A stretch of 44,649 nt of DNA from Vectrevirus T147P9. Below the pieces are notes generated by a model. It was not told the origin of the DNA and made no database searches. It worked only from the letters and a program-made list of their open reading frames with translations. Position numbers and translations under genes: made by a program. Location of the stretch: the sequence record OZ035774.1. One strand, 5' to 3'. Below are positions 4,333-43,200 of this stretch, piece by piece; positions within the stretch are counted from its first letter, which is position 1, and every line of letters starts with the position of its first letter.

Positions 4333-4356
4333 ATTTACTGGACACTATAGAAGAGG
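4333..4356 (+). promoter_or_regulatory. phage RNAP promoter (consensus copy)
   Basis: atttactggacactatagaagagg upstream of the first tailspike gene. Confidence 0.75.
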
Positions 4357-6412: not shown

Positions 6413-8125
6413 ATGCTTCAAAGATTAAGTGCTTACTTGGTGAAGTACAAGAGTAAACTAACAGGTACTATTGAGCGCCTGCTATCTGATAAACTATCGG
6501 ATACAATAGATGTTGCGGATTTTGGAGTTAATCCATCTTCTAATGACAACAGGCAAGCCCTTCAAGCTGCATTCAATGCGGTCAGATTTCTAGGCGGAGG
6601 TACTGTATCAGTCACTAAAGCTGGCGAATATAAACTCAGTGGTACTGTTGAGATATTTGCTAATACACACTTCAAGGTTGCTAAAGGTGTAACATTTGTA
6701 CGTGACTACGAAACAGGAGATACGCTATTCAGATTATCACAAGGGCAAGCTAGTAATGTAACAGTCAGTGGAGGTGTCTATGAAGGCAATGGTCACATTA
6801 AAGGAGATACACCTTTTGTAGTATTTGCATCTACTAGTAATAATGATTTGAAGTTTGAAGGCATAACAGTTAACAATGTAGTGGACTACCACGCCATAGA
6901 TTTAGCAGATTGGAACAACGTAGTTATTCGTGATTGTAAGTTCCTAGGGTTTAAGAATACAGGCAGTCGTAACTTCTCAGAGGCTATACAGTTAGACCCA
7001 GGACTTATTACAGTAGGTCGCTATGTGCAGTCTAGTGGTTTACTGGTAGAGAATTGCTATGCTGGCCCAAACCTTGATTCTGGATTTGGCGGGTATGGTG
7101 CTCTAGTAGGAAATCATGCATCAGCTTATGGTGTTCAAGATAACAACATTAGAATCCTAAATTGCACTACAGATGGTGCACTCTTTGCAGGTGTACGTGT
7201 ATTCAACTGGAAAAACTGGATAGTACGTGGTTGCACATTTAGAAACTCTAATGCAAGAGGTGTTCATGTTACACCTGTCTCCTCTCAAACTAAACCGCAA
7301 GGAACCCGACAAGGTAGTGTTGTAGATTGTACTTTTGATGGCGTAAGAACACCAGTGCTAATTGCTGCACCATCTTGGCCTTTTACCGATATTAGTGACA
7401 TTTGGCATGACCATATTGAAATTTCTAATAATACTATGATCCTCACAGAGGATGTATCCTATGGTGTAGATGCAAGGTGGTGTAAGAATTTAATTGTAAA
7501 AGGTAATACAGGCTCTGGTGGCTTAGGGTTAATCGGTTTACGCTTTGGGACAAAATACCACATCGAAGGTAATACTTGGGAAAATGGAAGAGGTAGTGGG
7601 ATTTGGTTAGGTGAGTCTGATGCTACTACATTCATTGGTACTGGCTTATCGGGCGAAGGTATACTTAGTCGTAATATCCTCTCTAAATTAGGGCAATATG
7701 GTATTCATGTAAACTGCAAGGTTGGCGGTCTAGTGATTAAGGCTAATAATATGAAGGAAGTATCTACAGCTGAAGCAGGTAGGCACTTCATTAGCATAGA
7801 CACAGGAGCTAACAACATCCTAGTAGAAGGTAATATTGGAGTAGATGGAGAAAGCCCTAACAAGCCAAGCCTTGGTATTCGTGTTACTTCTTCTTGCTCC
7901 AATATTAAACTAATTGGCAATGATTGCTATGGTACACAGGCGCCTCAGAATAACCAAGGAGTCGGTTCTAGTACGGTGATTGTTTATGGACTAAATGGCA
8001 ATCCTACAACTTTAGGCGTAGGTGCACCTGTAGGCTCTTTAGCAACTGATATCAATGGGTCTGGTGGTGGTACATTGTACGTTAAAGAATCTGGTACATC
8101 TGCTCAAGGTTGGGTTGCAAAGTAG
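6413..8125 (+). CDS. tailspike protein 2 (pectate-lyase-superfamily-like depolymerase)
   Basis: 570 aa; AAGGAGG RBS 6402-6408; N-terminal VADFGVNPSSNDNRQALQAAFNAV...GGGTVSVTKAGEYKLSGTV resembles the pectate-lyase-3 opening of phage depolymerases, followed by Gly/Asn-rich beta-helix-like repeats. Confidence 0.7.
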   Translation: MLQRLSAYLVKYKSKLTGTIERLLSDKLSDTIDVADFGVNPSSNDNRQALQAAFNAVRFLGGGTVSVTKAGEYKLSGTVEIFANTHFKVAKGVTFVRDYETGDTLFRLSQGQASNVTVSGGVYEGNGHIKGDTPFVVFASTSNNDLKFEGITVNNVVDYHAIDLADWNNVVIRDCKFLGFKNTGSRNFSEAIQLDPGLITVGRYVQSSGLLVENCYAGPNLDSGFGGYGALVGNHASAYGVQDNNIRILNCTTDGALFAGVRVFNWKNWIVRGCTFRNSNARGVHVTPVSSQTKPQGTRQGSVVDCTFDGVRTPVLIAAPSWPFTDISDIWHDHIEISNNTMILTEDVSYGVDARWCKNLIVKGNTGSGGLGLIGLRFGTKYHIEGNTWENGRGSGIWLGESDATTFIGTGLSGEGILSRNILSKLGQYGIHVNCKVGGLVIKANNMKEVSTAEAGRHFISIDTGANNILVEGNIGVDGESPNKPSLGIRVTSSCSNIKLIGNDCYGTQAPQNNQGVGSSTVIVYGLNGNPTTLGVGAPVGSLATDINGSGGGTLYVKESGTSAQGWVAK

Positions 8126-8134
8126 TAGGATTGC

Positions 8135-8284
8135 ATGCCAATAATCAAATCAGTTAAGCAAAGTGCTGTACGCCAGAACACAGAAGAGCTTATTCAATCA
8201 GGCCGTGACCCTAAGCAAGCTTATGCCATTGCCAAGGGTGTACAACGTCGTGCCTTGAAGAAACCTTCTGCATCTTCTGCGTAA
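8135..8284 (+). CDS. hypothetical small basic protein (last gene before the genome-end region)
   Basis: 49-aa ORF MPIIKSVKQSAVRQNTEELIQSGRDPKQAYAIAKGVQRRALKKPSASSA; weak RBS; not in track. Confidence 0.3.
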   Translation: MPIIKSVKQSAVRQNTEELIQSGRDPKQAYAIAKGVQRRALKKPSASSA

Positions 8285-9115
8285 GCAGGTTAATATCTTA
8301 GTGTACACAAGGGCAGACCTAGGTTTGCTCTTAGTGTATTTACAATGGAGGTCTTATGTATATACCTATTGAAGCAATAGTAGGTTGCCTATGTTTGTTG
8401 ATAGGTTTCGTTATAGGCGTAATAGCAAAGCCTTAGTACTGTACAAGGATTAACCAAAGTCAAAATTTTGATATAGGCGTGTGTCAGCTCTCTCGCCCTC
8501 GCCCTCGCCGGGTTGTCCCCATAGGGTGGCCTGAGGGAATCCGTCTTCGACGGGCAGGGCTGATGTACTCCTTCGCTAGTACAAGGGAGGCGGAGTGAAC
8601 GCCTGGGACGGCCTAGGGAATGGCTTAGTGGTGGACAAGGTGATTACCTTAGTGAAGCCTCTTAGTGCATTCCTTAGGCCATTCAGGGCGTTTATGAGGG
8701 ATTGACAGGGTGGGTGTGGGTGGGCTATCTGTTCGTTTCGCCTAGCGGCTACACTCACTGGCTAGCTTGCGCTACGTTCACTCGCTCACGTGTACCTTAT
8801 GCTATTACTTGATGGATAGCTTAGGTTAACCTTAGTGGACTGCCTTAGTTAAAGCCTTAGTGCTTATCTTAGTATAGCTTAGTATTGTACCTTAGTAAGT
8901 CTTAGTGTCTTCTCTTAGTGATTGCACATGCAAGCATGTAAGATGCCATTAGGTCGCGGTCGGTAGACCGCTAAAGAAAGAGAACAGTAATAAGATGCAG
9001 TAGGAGGAACACCAGAAGCCTAGCCAACCTAGCCTATCCTAGCTCTGTATCTATTGCTTTTCCTTAGTCTCACATGTTAGACAACCTATCTTATTCTTAG
9101 TGATGATAACTTAGT

Positions 9116-9144
9116 GTTGACAAGATAATCTTAGTGTAATACTA
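9116..9144 (+). promoter_or_regulatory. candidate host sigma70 early promoter
   Basis: TTGACA (9116-9121), 17-bp spacer, TACTAT; lies upstream of the early genes in the expected place for host-RNAP early promoters. Sequence match only. Confidence 0.3.
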
Positions 9145-9217
9145 TGCATCACGTAGGCGGTGCTGAGGCACCTAGTAGCCAGCTAGTAAGGCATACGAAG
9201 AGACTAGCGCTTACATT

Positions 9218-9230
9218 GCTCTTTAACAAT
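9218..9230 (+). promoter_or_regulatory. RNase III site-like conserved element (copy 1)
   Basis: GCTCTTTAACAAT occurs three times in the early region; the same string is recalled from the T7 early RNase III site upstream of gene 0.3. Confidence 0.4.
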
Positions 9231-9288
9231 TTGCTTAGTGTAACCTATGTATGCCGTGGTTAATTACTTATTGAATGAGGGATTAACT

Positions 9289-9468
9289 ATGACATTAAAC
9301 AACCGTGAACTATCCGTTCTCTTCACTCTGTTGTGCTACATGATTCGTAACAACGAATTGCTTACAGACGATGAGTTAGCCTTGTATCACCGCTTTCTTA
9401 ACGAAGGTTGGACCGATACAGTTAATCAATACCGTAACATGATAGATGAGTTGAGGGAGGGTAAATAA
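9289..9468 (+). CDS. hypothetical early protein
   Basis: ORF with ATG 9289 after GAGGGA RBS; track start 9247 is an in-frame alternative; no recognisable motif. Confidence 0.45.
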   Translation: MTLNNRELSVLFTLLCYMIRNNELLTDDELALYHRFLNEGWTDTVNQYRNMIDELREGK

Positions 9469-9692
9469 TGTATCAACATGAGGTATTCTTTGAATCAGCT
9501 AGCGAAGCTATTCGCTTCCGTGATGATATGATGCAAGCTGGTGTAGGCGTTGATGTGTATCACTATTTGATAGATTACGACACTGAATATCACCGAGTTA
9601 CCTTAGTGTCTGAGTATGACAACCAAGTCATTACTGAGTATCTAGGCAGTGAAGATTACGATTACGATGAAGTAATCACGACAAATCTCTAA
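9468..9692 (+). CDS. hypothetical early protein (acidic)
   Basis: 74-aa ORF whose ATG overlaps the previous stop; acidic, Tyr/Asp-rich C-terminus. Confidence 0.5.
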   Translation: MYQHEVFFESASEAIRFRDDMMQAGVGVDVYHYLIDYDTEYHRVTLVSEYDNQVITEYLGSEDYDYDEVITTNL

Positions 9693-11780: not shown

Positions 11781-14408
11781 ATGCAAGATTTACACGCTAT
11801 TCAACTTCAACTTGAAGAAGAAATGTTTAACGGCGGTATCCGTCGCTTTGAAGCGGACCAACAACGCCAGATTGCATCCGGTAATGAATCAGACACGGCA
11901 TGGAATCGCCGCTTATTGTCCGAGTTAATCGCGCCAATGGCTGAAGGTATTCAGGCTTATAAGGAAGAGTACGAAGGCAAGCGCGGTCGTGCACCACGTG
12001 CATTGGCTTTCATTAACTGCGTAGAAAATGAAGTGGCAGCGTATATCACGATGAAGATCGTAATGGATATGCTTAACACTGATGTAACCTTGCAAGCTAT
12101 CGCTATGAATGTAGCTGACCGCATCGAAGACCAAGTGCGCTTCAGTAAACTAGAAGGCCATGCAGCTAAATATTTTGAGAAGGTCAAGAAGTCACTTAAG
12201 GCAAGTAAGACTAAATCATATCGCCATGCGCACAATGTAGCGGTCGTGGCTGAGAAGTCAGTAGCTGACCGTGACGCTGATTTCTCTCGCTGGGAAGCGT
12301 GGCCTAAAGATACCTTGCTACAAATTGGTATGACCTTGCTAGAAATACTGGAAAATAGTGTATTCTTCAACGGGCAGCCTGTTTTCATCCGCACCTTGCG
12401 TACTAATGGCGGCAAACACGGTGTTTACTACTTACAGACTAGTGAACACGTTGGCGAGTGGATAACCGCCTTCAAAGAGCACGTAGCGCAACTAAGCCCT
12501 GCATATGCACCTTGCGTTATTCCTCCGCGTCCGTGGGTTTCACCTTTCAACGGTGGGTTTCATACTGAGAAAGTAGCAAGCCGTATCCGCCTTGTTAAAG
12601 GCAACCGTGAGCACGTCCGTAAGTTAACTAAAAAGCAAATGCCAGCGGTCTATAAGGCTGTTAACGCCTTACAAGCTACTAAGTGGCAGGTTAACAAGGA
12701 AGTATTGCAGGTAGTAGAAGATGTTATTCGTCTAGACCTCGGTTATGGTGTACCTTCCTTTAAGCCGCTCATTGACCGCGAGAACAAACCAGCTAACCCT
12801 GTTCCTCTTGAGTTCCAACACCTGCGAGGCCGTGAACTGAAAGAGATGCTTACGCCAGAACAGTGGCAAGCTTTTATAAACTGGAAAGGAGAATGTACCA
12901 AGCTGTATACCGCTGAAACTAAGCGCGGAAGCAAGTCGGCGGCGACCGTTCGCATGGTTGGACAGGCCCGTAAATACAGCCAGTTTGACGCAATTTATTT
13001 TGTGTATGCACTGGACAGCCGTTCACGCGTTTATGCGCAATCTAGCACGCTCTCGCCGCAATCAAACGACTTAGGCAAGGCATTGCTCCGTTTTACCGAA
13101 GGGCAGCGTCTTGATAGCGCTGAGGCGCTTAAGTGGTTTTTGGTGAACGGGGCGAATAATTGGGGTTGGGATAAGAAAACTTTTGACGTGCGCACCGCTA
13201 ACGTGCTGGATGGCGAATTTCAAGACATGTGCCGCGATATTGCAGCCGACCCGCTGACCTTCACTCAATGGGTAAATGCTGATTCCCCTTACGGCTTCCT
13301 TGCATGGTGCTTTGAATATGCGCGTTATCTGGATGCACTGGATGAAGGCACGCAAGACCAATTCATGACGCACCTACCCGTCCATCAAGACGGTAGTTGC
13401 TCTGGTATCCAGCACTATAGCGCGATGTTACGCGATGAAGTAGGTGCGAAAGCAGTAAACCTTAAGCCTTCTGACTCCCCTCAAGATATTTATGGCGCGG
13501 TTGCGCAGGTTGTTATCCAGAAGAATTACGCCTACATGAATGCAGACGATGCAGAGACTTTCACATCTGGAAGCGTCACACTTACAGGTGCAGAACTGCG
13601 TAGCATGGCTAGTGCGTGGGATATGATAGGAATCACTCGCGGATTGACCAAAAAGCCCGTAATGACACTACCTTATGGCAGCACACGTCTAACCTGCCGT
13701 GAATCAGTGATTGATTATATCGTTGATTTGGAAGAAAAAGAGGCCCAACGAGCTATTGCGGAAGGGCGTACCGCCAATCCTGTACATCCTTTTGATAATG
13801 ACCGTAAGGACAGCCTGACACCTAGCGCAGCTTATAACTATATGACAGCTTTAATCTGGCCTTCTATTTCGGAAGTGGTTAAAGCCCCTATAGTGGCAAT
13901 GAAAATGATTCGTCAGCTTGCCCGTTTCGCAGCTAAAAGGAATGAAGGCTTAGAGTATACCTTGCCTACTGGCTTCATCTTGCAACAAAAGATAATGGCG
14001 ACAGATATGCTCCGCGTATCTACTTGCTTGATGGGAGAAATCAAGATGAGTCTACAGATTGAAACGGACGTAGTGGATGAAACGGCTATGATGGGCGCTG
14101 CTGCTCCTAACTTTGTGCATGGTCATGATGCCAGTCACCTTATCTTAACAGTCTGCGACCTTGTTGATAAAGGGATTACATCTATCGCAGTCATTCATGA
14201 TTCTTTCGGTACTCACGCAGGCCGTACAGCCGATCTACGTGATAGTCTAAGGGCAGAAATGGTGAAGATGTATCAAGGCCGTAATGCCCTGCAAAGCCTG
14301 TTAGATGAGCATGAAGAACGCTGGTTAGTAGACACCGGAATCCAAGTGCCAGAGCAAGGAGAATTTGACCTTAACGAAATCTTAGTATCTGACTATTGCT
14401 TCGCATAA
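11781..14408 (+). CDS. T7/SP6-type single-subunit DNA-directed RNA polymerase
   Basis: 875 aa; catalytic motifs [13 protein letters not shown] (motif A) and VIHDSFGTH (motif C) as in T7 RNAP; length close to SP6 RNAP. Confidence 0.95.
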
Positions 14409-17236: not shown

Positions 17237-17253
17237 TGTATTTATCAGGGCTT

Positions 17254-17269
17254 GTCTCACATGTGAGAC
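17254..17269. repeat. 16-bp perfect palindrome GTCTCACATGTGAGAC (copy 3 of 6)
   Basis: Extended context ggcttgtctcacatgtgagacaggctcttatt forms an 11-bp-stem hairpin followed by a U-rich tract. Confidence 0.9.
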
Positions 17270-17308
17270 AGGCTCTTATTAAGTACATTAAATAACTGGA
17301 GATTGATT

Positions 17309-40156: not shown

Positions 40157-40173
40157 TACCTAACTCAAGGCTT

Positions 40174-40189
40174 GTCTCACATGTGAGAC
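40174..40189. repeat. 16-bp perfect palindrome GTCTCACATGTGAGAC (copy 6 of 6)
   Basis: Context ggcttgtctcacatgtgagacaggtctttatg is near-identical to copy 3 including the U-rich tail. Confidence 0.9.
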
Positions 40190-40220
40190 AGGTCTTTATG
40201 ATAGGCACTATGGAGGAACT

Positions 40221-43200
40221 ATGGAACAAGATATTAATACTAATTGGGCTGGTTATGTCCAGTCTACTCCTGAGCCGTTTTCTATTGAGGCGGCTCCGGT
40301 ATCGGCTCCTACGATACGCCAGCGTAATGAGCTACAAGAGCAAGTCCTTGAAGCTAAAGCAGACGCGGATATCTTAGGTGCTGTAGGTGCTGCCTTCCAG
40401 AATGAGTGGTTGGCATTCGGAGGTAAGAGATGGTATGACCGTGCCACTGCTGACTTCACACCCCAACCTGACTTTGAAATCCAACCAGAGCAACGTGAAG
40501 CTCTTCGCTTCAAATACGGAACGGATATGATGCAGACAATCACTGAGGGTGTTAGGTCTGAGGATGAATTAAACTTCCGTATTCAGAACGCTGATGAAGA
40601 CCTTGAGCGTAATAAACGTATTGCGCAGGCTGGCTGGGCTGGCTCTGTGGCAACGATTGGCGCTGCTGTGCTTGACCCAGTGGGTTGGGTTGCCTCTATC
40701 CCAACTGGCGGTGCAGCCAAAGTCGGCCTCGTAGGTCGTGCCGTGCGTGGCGCTATCGCCGCTGGCGTGAGCAATGCCGCTATTGAATCCGTGTTAGTAC
40801 AAGGCGACATGACTCGTGATTTAGATGACATTATGGTAGCACTAGGCTCCGGTATGGCTATGGGTGGCGTTATTGGCGCTGTAGCGCGTGGTAGGGCCAC
40901 TAAGCTCAGCGAGCAAGGGGATGACAGGGCTGCGAGTGTTGTGCGCAGTGCAGATGCAGGGGACCGCTATGTTCGTGCCGTTGCCGATGACAGTATAGGT
41001 GCGATGCGTGTTAAGGGTGAAGAGGTACTCACTGAGGGCGCATTTGATATATCTAGTAAAGGTGAAGACTTGCTGAAAACATTGCAGAGGGAAGGGAACG
41101 CTATTGACATGACCCCTCGCCGCTGGGCCGGAACTTTGTCTGCCCTTGGTACTGTCGTACATTCCTCTCAGGATGCAAGTGTACGCGGTCTTGGTGCTCG
41201 CCTGTTTGAGTCCCCGCAAGGCTTAGGTGCACAGAAGGCATCGGCTAGTCTCATGCAGAATACTAACTTGAACCGTCTGAAATCTGCTGATATGAATCGT
41301 TTCAACGATGGGTTCGATTTATGGCTCAAAGAGAATAATATCAATCCGGTTGCAGGTCATACTAACTCTCACTATGTGCAGCAATATAATGAGAAGGTAT
41401 GGGAAGCTGTACGCATCGGTATGGATGAGTCTACGCCTAAGTCTATCCGTATGGCAGCAGAGGGGCAGCAAGCTATGTATCGTGAAGCATTAGCATTACG
41501 TCAACGCTCTGGTGAAGCTGGGTTTGAAAAGGTTAAAGCAGATGATAAGTACATGCCTGATATTTTTGACAGTATGAAGGCTCGTCGTCAATTCGGTATG
41601 CACGATAAAGAGGACATCATTGAGCTATTCTCTCGTGCATACCAGAATGGTTCTCGTAAGGTTCCAAAGGAAGTGGCTGATGATATTGCACGTGCACAAG
41701 TAAACCGCGTTGCTGATGCCACCTTGACCGGACAGCTTAGCTTTGAAAAGGCTATGTCTGGTCAAACCAAAGCAGAATATGAAGCACTCATGCGCAAAGC
41801 AGGCTTTAGTGATGAAGAGATTGAAAAGATGGTAGAAGCTCTGGATAATAAAGAAACCAGAGATAATATCTCTAACCGAGCTAAGATGAGTTTAGGCTTA
41901 GATGTTACTCAAGAGTACAATGGCATTCGTATGCGTGACTTTATGAACACTAACGTGGAAGAGTTAACAGATAACTACATGAAGGAAGCGGCAGGTGGTG
42001 CTGCCTTGGCTCGTCAAGGTTTCTCTACCTATCAGGCTGCACTTAGTGCAATTGACCTTGTAGAGCGAAATGCACGAAATGCAGCTAAAGATACAAAAGC
42101 ACACGCACAATTTGAAGCGGAGTCTGCTAAGATTCGTCAATCAGAGCCTGATTACAAGAAGGCACAAGAGAAGATTGAAGAGTTAAAGAAGAGACTTAAA
42201 TTGAAAGAGAAAGATGAAGCAGCAGGTCTGGCTGTTGATGAAGAAATCCGTCAGATGCGAGAAGGGCTTCGCTTAATTATGGGTAAATCTATCGATGCAG
42301 ACCCACAGACTTTGTCTAATAAAATGCTGCGTCGTGGTCGTGACATCACAGGCGTACTTCGCTTAGGTCAGATGGGCTTCGCACAGCTAGGTGAACTTGC
42401 TAACTTCATGGGTGAGTTTGGTATTGCTGCAACCACTATAGCTTTAGGTAAGCAATTCCGCTTTACATCTAAAGCTTTGCGGAGCGGGGATGGCTTCTTC
42501 CGAGATAAGAACTTGGCAGAAGTAGAGAGGATGGTAGGTTACATTGGTGAGGATAACTGGCTAACAACCAAGGGTGCACGTCCAGATGAGTTTGGTGATG
42601 TAACCACAGTAAGAGGGATGATGGTTCACTTTGACCAATCCATGAACTCAATACGTCGTGCTCAGACCAACCTATCGCTCTTCCGCATGGCACAGGGTTC
42701 TCTGGAGCGAATGACTAATAGGCAAATAGCCTTGTCTTTCATTGACCACCTTGAAGGCAAGAAGATTATTCCTCAGAAGAAACTGGAGGAACTTGGTCTT
42801 ACTCAGGGGTTCATGACTAACCTACAGAAGCACTATGATGCTAACTCTAAAGGTTCTGGCTTGCTTGGATTTGATACAATGCCTTATGCCATGGGTGAAA
42901 CTTTAGCTAATGCTATTCGTCGTAAGTCAGGTCTAATTATCCAACGTAACTTCATTGGTGATGAAGGGATCTGGATGAACAAAGCGCTTGGTAAAACTTT
43001 TGCACAGCTTAAGTCTTTCTCTTTGGTATCTGGTGAGAAGCAATTTGGTCGAGGTATTCGCCACGATAAGATTGGTCTTGCTAAGAAGACAGCCTATGGG
43101 TTTGCTTTAGGTTCCATAGTATATGCAGCGAAAGCTTATGTGAACTCTATTGGACGAGAAGACCAAGATGAATATCTGGAAGAGAAACTATCCCCTAAAG

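Follow-up and report, generated by a model that had tools for sequence, protein, structure and literature searches.

The region 8290–9250 of the Vectrevirus T147P9 sequence record OZ035774.1 (44,649 nucleotides, analysed at its full length and referred to below as the window) is very probably, at a probability of roughly 0.85 as judged from the sequence, the concatemer junction of a phage of T7 type whose genome ends in short exact direct terminal repeats (DTRs). The assignment is based on boundaries homologous to the genome ends of K1-5, SP6, and K1E, a T7-type terminase, a phage RNA polymerase, an ATCTGTT signal at one boundary, the layout of short CTTAGT repeats, and the selection on the cores of these repeats. 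The finding is already known in kind: the DTRs of K1-5 and SP6 are in public records, and this phage carries a homologous junction. The features described below are given on the + strand.

Genome record and packaging enzymes

A megablast search placed the window in the genus Vectrevirus (K1-5-like, Molineuxvirinae, SP6 group), with Vectrevirus T147P1 as the best match (96% identity over 90% of the first 25 kb). The T147P1 record and several sister Vectrevirus assemblies share the start coordinate of the window, which begins with the small terminase gene in the same way as a batch of re-oriented Vectrevirus assemblies. The window is a complete genome that was circularised in assembly and re-oriented to the small terminase gene, so the physical ends lie inside it, fused at approximately 8.5 kb through one collapsed copy of the DTR.

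The terminase genes are of T7 type, as shown by matches to PF11123, PF22530, and the PHROG terminase families. The small subunit, of the T7 gp18 type, is encoded at 30–329 (PF11123, E = 4e-16; phrog_891) and is a candidate trans-acting reader of the junction. The large subunit, of the T7 gp19 type, is encoded at 722–2659 (PF22530 Terminase-T7_RNaseH-like, E = 2e-35; phrog_17672, E = 8e-239); by analogy with T7, it would be the nuclease/ATPase that cuts the DTR boundaries. A single-subunit phage RNA polymerase is encoded at 11781–14408 (PF00940, PF14700).

The probable terminal repeat and its boundaries

The putative DTR runs from a left boundary at 8489–8493 to a right boundary at 8727 (cut 8727|8728), and the sequence between these boundaries is present in one copy only in the window. 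It had been held in an earlier note on this DNA that the length of the repeat could not be set, but homology to the exact DTRs of relatives gives 235–239 bp, as compared with 234 bp in K1-5, 174 bp in SP6, and 288 bp in K1E; the exact DTR of Klebsiella phage K1-ULIP33 is 163 bp. In the linear K1-5 reference record, both ends carry an exact repeat of 234 bp, and K1-5, SP6, K1E, and ULIP33 have as exact duplicates what assembly has collapsed to one copy in the window. K1-5 (AY370674) is homologous to the window and 92–93% identical to it across the DTR and the array that follows.

K1-5, SP6, K1E, and ULIP33 all have GTCAGC|TCTCTCGCC at the left boundary and ...GTGGGCTA|TCTGTTCG at the right. Both boundaries in the window are identical or near-identical to the termini of the relatives compared, and alignment to the terminal repeats of SP6 and K1-5, the check that the earlier note had proposed, showed homology at both. 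At the left cut, ...GGCGTGTGTCAGC is followed by TCTCTCGCC, and the records begin at the first, third, fourth, or fifth base of TCTCTCGCC. The first bases of the SP6 record with its exact 174-bp DTR, TCTCTCGG, are homologous to position 8489; the starts of K1E and Pm5460 correspond to 8491, those of P3a and ULIP33 to 8492, and that of K1-5 with its exact 234-bp DTR to 8493. The records thus differ by 0–4 nt at this boundary, and approximately eight further database records begin at most 4 nt from 8489. A left end near 8488 had been suggested from the sequence, and the SP6 record starts at exactly the proposed base, the T at 8489. In most relatives, the termini map to the same spot rather than elsewhere. 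The ends of UAB_Phi78 were mapped experimentally, with Bal31 digestion and run-off sequencing, and its record begins 15 nt further to the left. The GC-rich segment described as starting at approximately 8488 was also found, with 58% GC in 8489–8790 vs 45% genome-wide.

The sequence around the left boundary is highly conserved. The 37 bp outside it and the first approximately 40 bp of the DTR are almost invariant in 11 junctions, and in the region only the stretch 8460–8532, which spans the boundary, retains matches to distant phages of Klebsiella and Proteus. The near-invariant box just outside the DTR, AACCAAAGTCAAAATTTTGATATAGGCGTGTGTCAGC (8452–8488), holds the palindrome TCAAAATTTTGA (8460–8471) and is, on the strength of this conservation, a candidate recognition sequence for the left-end cut. 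A related box, AATTTTGATATCGTCGTGTG, precedes the DTR of phiKMV. Inside the repeat, the left end (8492–8526) consists of three CTCGCC units at 8492–8509, detected by TRF, and a CCCCATAGGG box at 8517–8526, which all Molineuxvirinae relatives examined, as well as T7 (TTCCCCCATAGGGGG), have at a similar distance from the left end. The T7 record begins with TCTCACAG; the DTRs of T7 and T3, like that of the window, begin with TCTC and have the CCCCATAGGG box approximately 25 nt in. Further to the right, a 25-nt imperfect inverted repeat (8598–8622 and 8668–8692) has in and beside its loop the repeats internal to the DTR (8624–8678), namely CTTAGT at 8624, 8648, and 8661 and CTTAGG at 8673.

A candidate pause signal at the right boundary

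The right-boundary box (8702–8733) consists of TTGACA (8702–8707), the G-run GGGTGGGTGTGGGTGGG (8708–8724), and ATCTGTT (8727–8733), the last of which had been missed in the earlier note. The G-run is a perfect four-run tract in the window, whereas most relatives lack such a tract. The ATCTGTT begins at the last base of the DTR and is the sole + strand copy in the 44.6 kb, whereas the − strand has six. In the genomes of K1-5, SP6, and T7 there is likewise one + strand copy each, always at the right DTR boundary; taking these three and the window together, there were zero other + strand copies vs 13 on the − strand. The cut differs slightly, being placed A|TCTGTT in the window, one base later than the |ATCTGTT of T7. 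The signal is also found at the boundary in T3, K1E, Pm5460, P3a, and UAB78, and ULIP33 has ATCTATT. There was no ATCTGTT at the phiKMV boundary, so this pause signal is not shared by the whole family.

ATCTGTT is a class II pause/termination signal of T7 RNA polymerase and is present in the T7 concatemer junction (bioRxiv 10.1101/2021.01.11.426313; PMC11617373). The T7 polymerase–lysozyme complex pauses at the junction, interacts with gp18/gp19, and starts maturation, and the T7 junction site is described as a pause site (PMC3276506). In the window, all genes and the eight SP6-type promoters found are on the + strand, with the nearest promoter upstream of the junction at 4333, and the ATCTGTT at 8727–8733 is on the non-template strand in the direction of transcription, as a class II signal should be placed. 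The bases after it, CGTTTCGCC, are only moderately T-rich, and the T7 junction site has ACAGTCTCC in the same place. A T-run directly downstream of a class II signal is needed for termination rather than pausing. By analogy with T7, the phage RNA polymerase is expected to pause at ATCTGTT, and the exclusion of the signal from the coding strand elsewhere suggests, indirectly, that polymerases of the SP6 type respond to the signal in vivo. From the T7 system and the placement and strand exclusion of ATCTGTT, a polymerase-coupled cutting step at the junction appears likely.

On the T7 paradigm, the events at the junction would be as follows. Late transcripts from the upstream + strand phage promoters would cross the DTR, and the phage polymerase would pause a few nucleotides past ATCTGTT. 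The paused polymerase would help to recruit the terminase, and a cut at 8727|8728 would give the right end; once the DTR had been duplicated, a cut at 8489–8493 would give the left end. On infection, the left end would enter first, carrying the array and the host promoter at 9117–9145 in the first approximately 660 bp.

The CTTAGT array: number, spacing, and conservation

An unbiased k-mer scan ranked CTTAGT first among the 6-mers and CTTAGTG first among the 7-mers for enrichment in the region. There were 19 exact copies of CTTAGT on the + strand of 8290–9250, vs 0.37 expected from the rest of the genome (Poisson P ~4e-26), and none on the − strand (P = 4e-6 for the 19:0 strand bias); in the whole window, both strands had 53 copies vs 29.8 ± 5.4 in shuffled sequences. 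The estimate of about 16 copies in 8440–9250 proved exact, with all 16 on the + strand (8624, 8648, 8661, 8831, 8844, 8856, 8868, 8878, 8891, 8901, 8914, 9063, 9096, 9110, 9130, and 9234). Three further + strand copies lie upstream (8297, 8330, and 8432), and the variant CTTAGG occurs twice (8673 and 8820). The seventh base is G in 13 of the 19 copies and the base before the core is usually C or T, giving the unit (C/T)CTTAGT(G).

The tandem block (8820–8919) consists of the CTTAGG at 8820 and the eight CTTAGT copies that start from 8831 to 8914. Its spacings are 11, 13, 12, 12, 10, 13, 10, and 13 bp, with a mean of 11.75 bp, and TRF reported a super-period of 23–24 bp. The spacing had been described as roughly helical, and this was not borne out: the phase coherence was R = 0.93 at 11.75 bp vs 0.13 at 10.5 bp. 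Successive sites would thus spiral round the helix instead of lying on one face.

In an alignment of 11 sequences, the identity of 10 relatives to the window over the tandem block was 96% for the hexamer cores vs 63% for the spacers, and for the five most distant relatives the values were 93% vs 41% (P = 1e-11). Since the cores are far better conserved than the spacers, the cores are under strong purifying selection and the block is not a product of slippage. The copies outside the block were kept in only 20–70% of relatives. The earlier note had named absence of the array from relatives with defined ends as evidence against a genome end; each of the 10 related junctions examined has the array, on the + strand in every case. 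These junctions came from viral contigs and from phages infecting Escherichia, Salmonella, Klebsiella, and Proteus. A scan of viral contigs with GTGGGCTATCTGTT returned 120 loci, eight of which were true junctions and the rest chance 14-mer matches.

These data also bear on the reading that no physical end lies here, the genome being circularly permuted by headful packaging and the repeats arising by neutral replication slippage. The single copy of the proposed repeat in the window and the arbitrary ends of the window would agree with it. However, four relatives have exact DTRs with identical boundary sequences, the terminase is of T7 type, the window starts with the small terminase gene as in the re-oriented Vectrevirus batch, and the conservation of cores over spacers rules out neutral slippage. 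We consider this reading extremely improbable.

Comparison of the array with K1-5, SP6, and T7

K1-5 and SP6 (NC_004831) share with the window both boundary sequences, the offsets of CTTAGT from ATCTGTT, the downstream hairpins, and the early promoter. In K1-5, CTTAGT is found at −225 and −192, at 131, 155, and 168 inside the DTR, and in eight copies at 322–406; the window has the same pattern and one extra copy, at 8432.

The T7 CCTAAAG arrays had been pointed out as analogous, and on the T7 record itself the layout is the same as that of CTTAGT here. All copies of CCTAAAG are on the + strand, at −106 and −77, at 17, 41, and 60 inside the 160-bp DTR, and in eight copies at 175–332, and the layout in the T3 record resembles that of T7. 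The arrangement is thus 3 + 3 + 8 plus scattered copies in the window vs 2 + 3 + 8 in T7, with the pair at 8297 and 8330 as the counterpart of the two T7 copies left of the right-end DTR, and the tandem block as the counterpart of the T7 SRL array. In T7, too, the only ATCTGTT of the coding strand is the one at the right boundary, and both T7 and T3 have host promoters within approximately 750 bp and a homologous terminase and RNA polymerase.

The unit is CTTAGT(G) instead of the CCTAAAG of T7 and T3, the period is 11.75 bp instead of 13 bp, the block starts approximately 95 bp after the DTR instead of approximately 15 bp, and there is little other sequence similarity between the junctions. 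The window has the general form of a short-repeat array (a unit of 6–7 bp on one strand, spaced 10–13 bp, and placed before, inside, and after the DTR), but its unit is not CCTAAAG; it is an analogue or a diverged homologue of the T7 SRL/SRR arrays and not the same motif.

Coding content and other elements of the junction

The two most upstream CTTAGT copies, at 8297–8302 and 8330–8335 (both CTTAGTGTA), flank a terminator-like hairpin at 8309–8332, which is kept in SP6 by compensatory changes (GGGTTGGC...GTTGACCC) and could limit transcription into the junction. These copies are retained in 4 of 10 and 7 of 10 relatives, respectively. The stretch 8290–9250 had been described as non-coding throughout. 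This does not hold for its beginning, where the last late open reading frame (8356–8436) encodes a conserved 26-residue hydrophobic peptide resembling K1-5 gp49 and SP6 gp52 (phrog_37692, E = 6e-12), with the CTTAGT at 8432 overlapping its stop codon; the true non-coding stretch is therefore approximately 8437–9288, and for this part the description stands. The first early gene starts at 9289. Some database records have CDSs annotated across the equivalent region, and these are probably spurious.

Downstream of the tandem block, there are two small hairpins (8926–8971) conserved through compensatory changes: ACATG-CAAG-CATGT at 8926–8939, which is ATAGC/GCTAT or ACAAG/CTTGT in relatives, and GCGGTC-GGTA-GACCGC at 8956–8971, which is GCTTGC/GCAAGC in Pm5460. 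The early-promoter zone (9063–9239) contains the scattered CTTAGT copies at 9063, 9096, 9110, 9130, and 9234, a 16-bp palindrome GTCTCACATGTTAGAC (9067–9082) that covaries among relatives, and a sigma-70 promoter, TTGACA-17-TACTAT (9117–9145). The promoter lies 629–657 bp from the left end, a distance of approximately 630 bp being comparable to that of T7 A1–A3 at 498–750; it is conserved in most relatives, and the annotation of Proteus phage Pm5460 gives its counterpart as a host promoter. No tRNAs were found, and a search of 8100–9500 against Rfam gave a sole match, which was below threshold (SNORD38, E = 0.26).

Possible roles of the array

To our knowledge, the function of the equivalent T7 arrays has never been established. 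The reading that we favor, at close to even odds, is that the CTTAGT arrays are directional packaging signals, serving as docking sites for the small terminase or as a signal sensed by the translocating motor as it nears the terminal cut. The repeats are strictly oriented, they are found to either side of the two cut sites, and T7 has another unit arranged in the same way, all of which argues for a phage-encoded, direction-sensitive reader. In the lambda cosB R-sites and cosQ and in the SPP1 pacL and pacR boxes, short oriented repeats flank a terminase cut and position or signal the packaging enzyme; their likeness to the window is one of analogy, without homology of sequence or protein. A more specific proposal, which we regard as rather doubtful, is that the clade-specific repeats (CTTAGTG in SP6-like phages, CCTAAAG in T7 and T3, and other units in phiKMV) form a docking code for the small terminase which, together with the polymerase paused at ATCTGTT, sets the concatemer cut. 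We know of no demonstration that a T7-type small terminase binds the T7 short repeats.

The array might instead act at the start of infection, in the leading approximately 850 bp, through recruitment of host RNA polymerase, early promoter strength, or DNA entry. The array is wholly within the part of the genome that enters first, five copies lie among the early promoters, and one copy fills the spacer of the strongest sigma-70 promoter and gives a TG just upstream of the −10 element (TTGACAagataatCTTAGTGTAATACT, 9117–9145). On the other hand, the best-conserved copies (8831–8919) are approximately 200–290 bp upstream of this promoter and the promoter-proximal copies are the least conserved, no + strand promoter was predicted within the tandem block, and the copies at 8297, 8330, and 8432 are at the right end, which enters last. 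We therefore consider an early-infection role unlikely.

The tandem block could also be an iteron-like origin element or a site where a replication or recombination protein is loaded, and as such could aid the duplication of the terminal repeat. Its direct repeats with a core of 6–7 bp, a period of approximately 12 bp, and variable spacers would suit such an element, as would the two covarying hairpins directly downstream and the secondary origin that T7 has near its left end. This role appears quite improbable, since no initiator protein is known in this phage group, no AT-rich unwinding element adjoins the block, and the motif also occurs inside the DTR and beyond its other side, a distribution more in keeping with a role centred on the junction than with a point origin.

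A host DNA-binding protein that reads head-to-tail hexamers approximately 11 bp apart, such as a member of the OmpR/PhoB family, is a very improbable reader. The direct-repeat geometry with its 10–13 bp spacing is of the right kind, and the box YTTAAK-N5-YTTAAK, which we take to be that of PmrA/BasR, is one mismatch from CTTAGT. Against this, phages infecting Escherichia, Salmonella, Klebsiella, and Proteus have all conserved the motif, and in T7, which has the same host, the corresponding layout is built from another heptamer, spaced at 13 bp, pointing to a phage-encoded reader.

Several other ideas were set aside. A G-quadruplex formed by GGGTGGGTGTGGGTGGG beside the pause site cannot be a general mechanism, as SP6 and Pm5460 have only two G-runs there. 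T7 primase recognises GTC, which neither of the repeat motifs holds consistently. CTTAGTG resembles positions −15 to −11 of the SP6 promoter TTTAGGTG, but the T7 repeat is unlike the T7 promoter, so mimicry of the promoter was rejected. The array is not coding sequence, as there is no + strand open reading frame and the spacers have indels of 1–2 nt between relatives. A full-text literature search for CTTAGT, CCTAAAG, and SRL/SRR returned primers or nothing.

Implications for the phage group

The short-repeat arrays and the junction pause site of T7 are textbook material, and none of the present results would surprise a T7 specialist. What is added here is the quantified selection on the repeat cores, the non-helical period of 11.75 bp, and the absence of ATCTGTT from the coding strand of whole genomes, other than at the junction, in both lineages. 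For annotators, homology places the true ends of this re-oriented assembly at 8489–8493 (left) and 8727 (right), with a DTR of approximately 235–239 bp.

The selection on the cores and the exclusion of ATCTGTT from the coding strand in SP6-like and T7-like lineages support a polymerase-coupled packaging model outside T7, and the comparative data set makes the unexplained short-repeat arrays experimentally approachable. If the docking code were true, an array swap would switch packaging specificity between co-infecting T7-like and SP6-like phages, and the decades-old question of the purpose of the T7 short-repeat array would be settled.

Results and discussion

Directly 3' of the CTTAGT block, on the plus strand, lie two small hairpins (8926–8939 and 8956–8971), both of which are maintained through compensatory substitutions in phages of Escherichia, Salmonella, Klebsiella and Proteus. 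Across these phages the stem of the first occurs as ACATG/CATGT, ATAGC/GCTAT or ACAAG/CTTGT, and that of the second as GCGGTC/GACCGC versus GCTTGC/GCAAGC. Neither hairpin is followed by a T-run, and neither gave a match in Rfam. Downstream of the hairpins and upstream of the early promoters, another family of small repeats, CCTAGC(C), is present in three to four plus-strand copies (agCCTAGCCaaCCTAGCCtatCCTAGCtc, 9017–9043); it is retained in the Escherichia and Salmonella relatives and not in the Klebsiella-type relatives. A 16-bp palindrome, GTCTCACATGTTAGAC (9067–9082), is located approximately 35 bp upstream of the early promoter −35 box. Its counterpart in distant relatives is GTCCAACACGTTGGAC, and the paired changes between the two preserve the symmetry of the palindrome, which could serve as the operator of a dimeric protein or else form a hairpin.

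In its 5' leader, the first early transcript carries a further plus-strand hairpin, GGTGC-TGAG-GCACC (9159–9172), which shows compensatory changes in relatives (AGCAC...GTGCT and GGAA..TTCC) and is followed on its 3' side by the well-conserved leader sequence GCTCTTTAACAATTTGCTTAGTGTAACC. This hairpin may act in RNA processing or stability.

In some database records, hypothetical-protein coding sequences are annotated over the region of the direct terminal repeat (DTR) and repeat array, as at 104–388 and 453–554 of the UAB_Phi78 record and at 41585–42832 of MZ234012. The window has no plus-strand open reading frame (ORF) in this region, and the spacers differ by indels of 1–2 nt between relatives; these calls are probably spurious. 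Elsewhere in the window genome, the sole sizeable repeat is a 33-nt direct repeat (17245–17277 and 40165–40196; 94% identical). The small and large terminase genes flank a plus-strand HNH endonuclease ORF (184–774; PF13392, phrog_59), which in its listed extent runs into both neighbours, overlapping the small terminase ORF and the beginning of the large terminase. This ORF probably represents the insertion of a homing endonuclease, and its real start is likely to lie downstream of the listed TTG.

Directly upstream of the ATCTGTT pause signal, the non-template (plus) strand carries a perfect four-run G-tract, GGGTGGGTGTGGGTGGG (8708–8724), matching the G-quadruplex consensus. Two viral contigs (L016 and L051) have GTGGGTGGG at the equivalent position, whereas the G-runs of K1-5 are there only with longer loops, and SP6 and Pm5460 have only two G-runs. 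A four-run tract is thus probably not generally required.

The right end of phiKMV (Krylovirinae), which has a 414-bp DTR, offers a comparison. Just outside the DTR, about 40 nt before it, phiKMV has CCAATTTTGATATCGTCGTGTGAGAACCC, resembling the Molineuxvirinae box AAAATTTTGATATAGGCGTGTGTCAGC, and a CCCCCGTAGG box lies approximately 25 nt into the DTR. PhiKMV lacks ATCTGTT, and its strand-specific repeats (CCTGGCT and CCTGGGT) differ from the Molineuxvirinae unit.

Across the whole genomes of the window phage, K1-5, SP6 and T7, ATCTGTT occurs on the coding strand only at the DTR boundary (four of four genomes), whereas the non-coding strands carry 13 copies in sum. This difference suggests that internal class II signals are selected against in SP6-like phages, as in T7.
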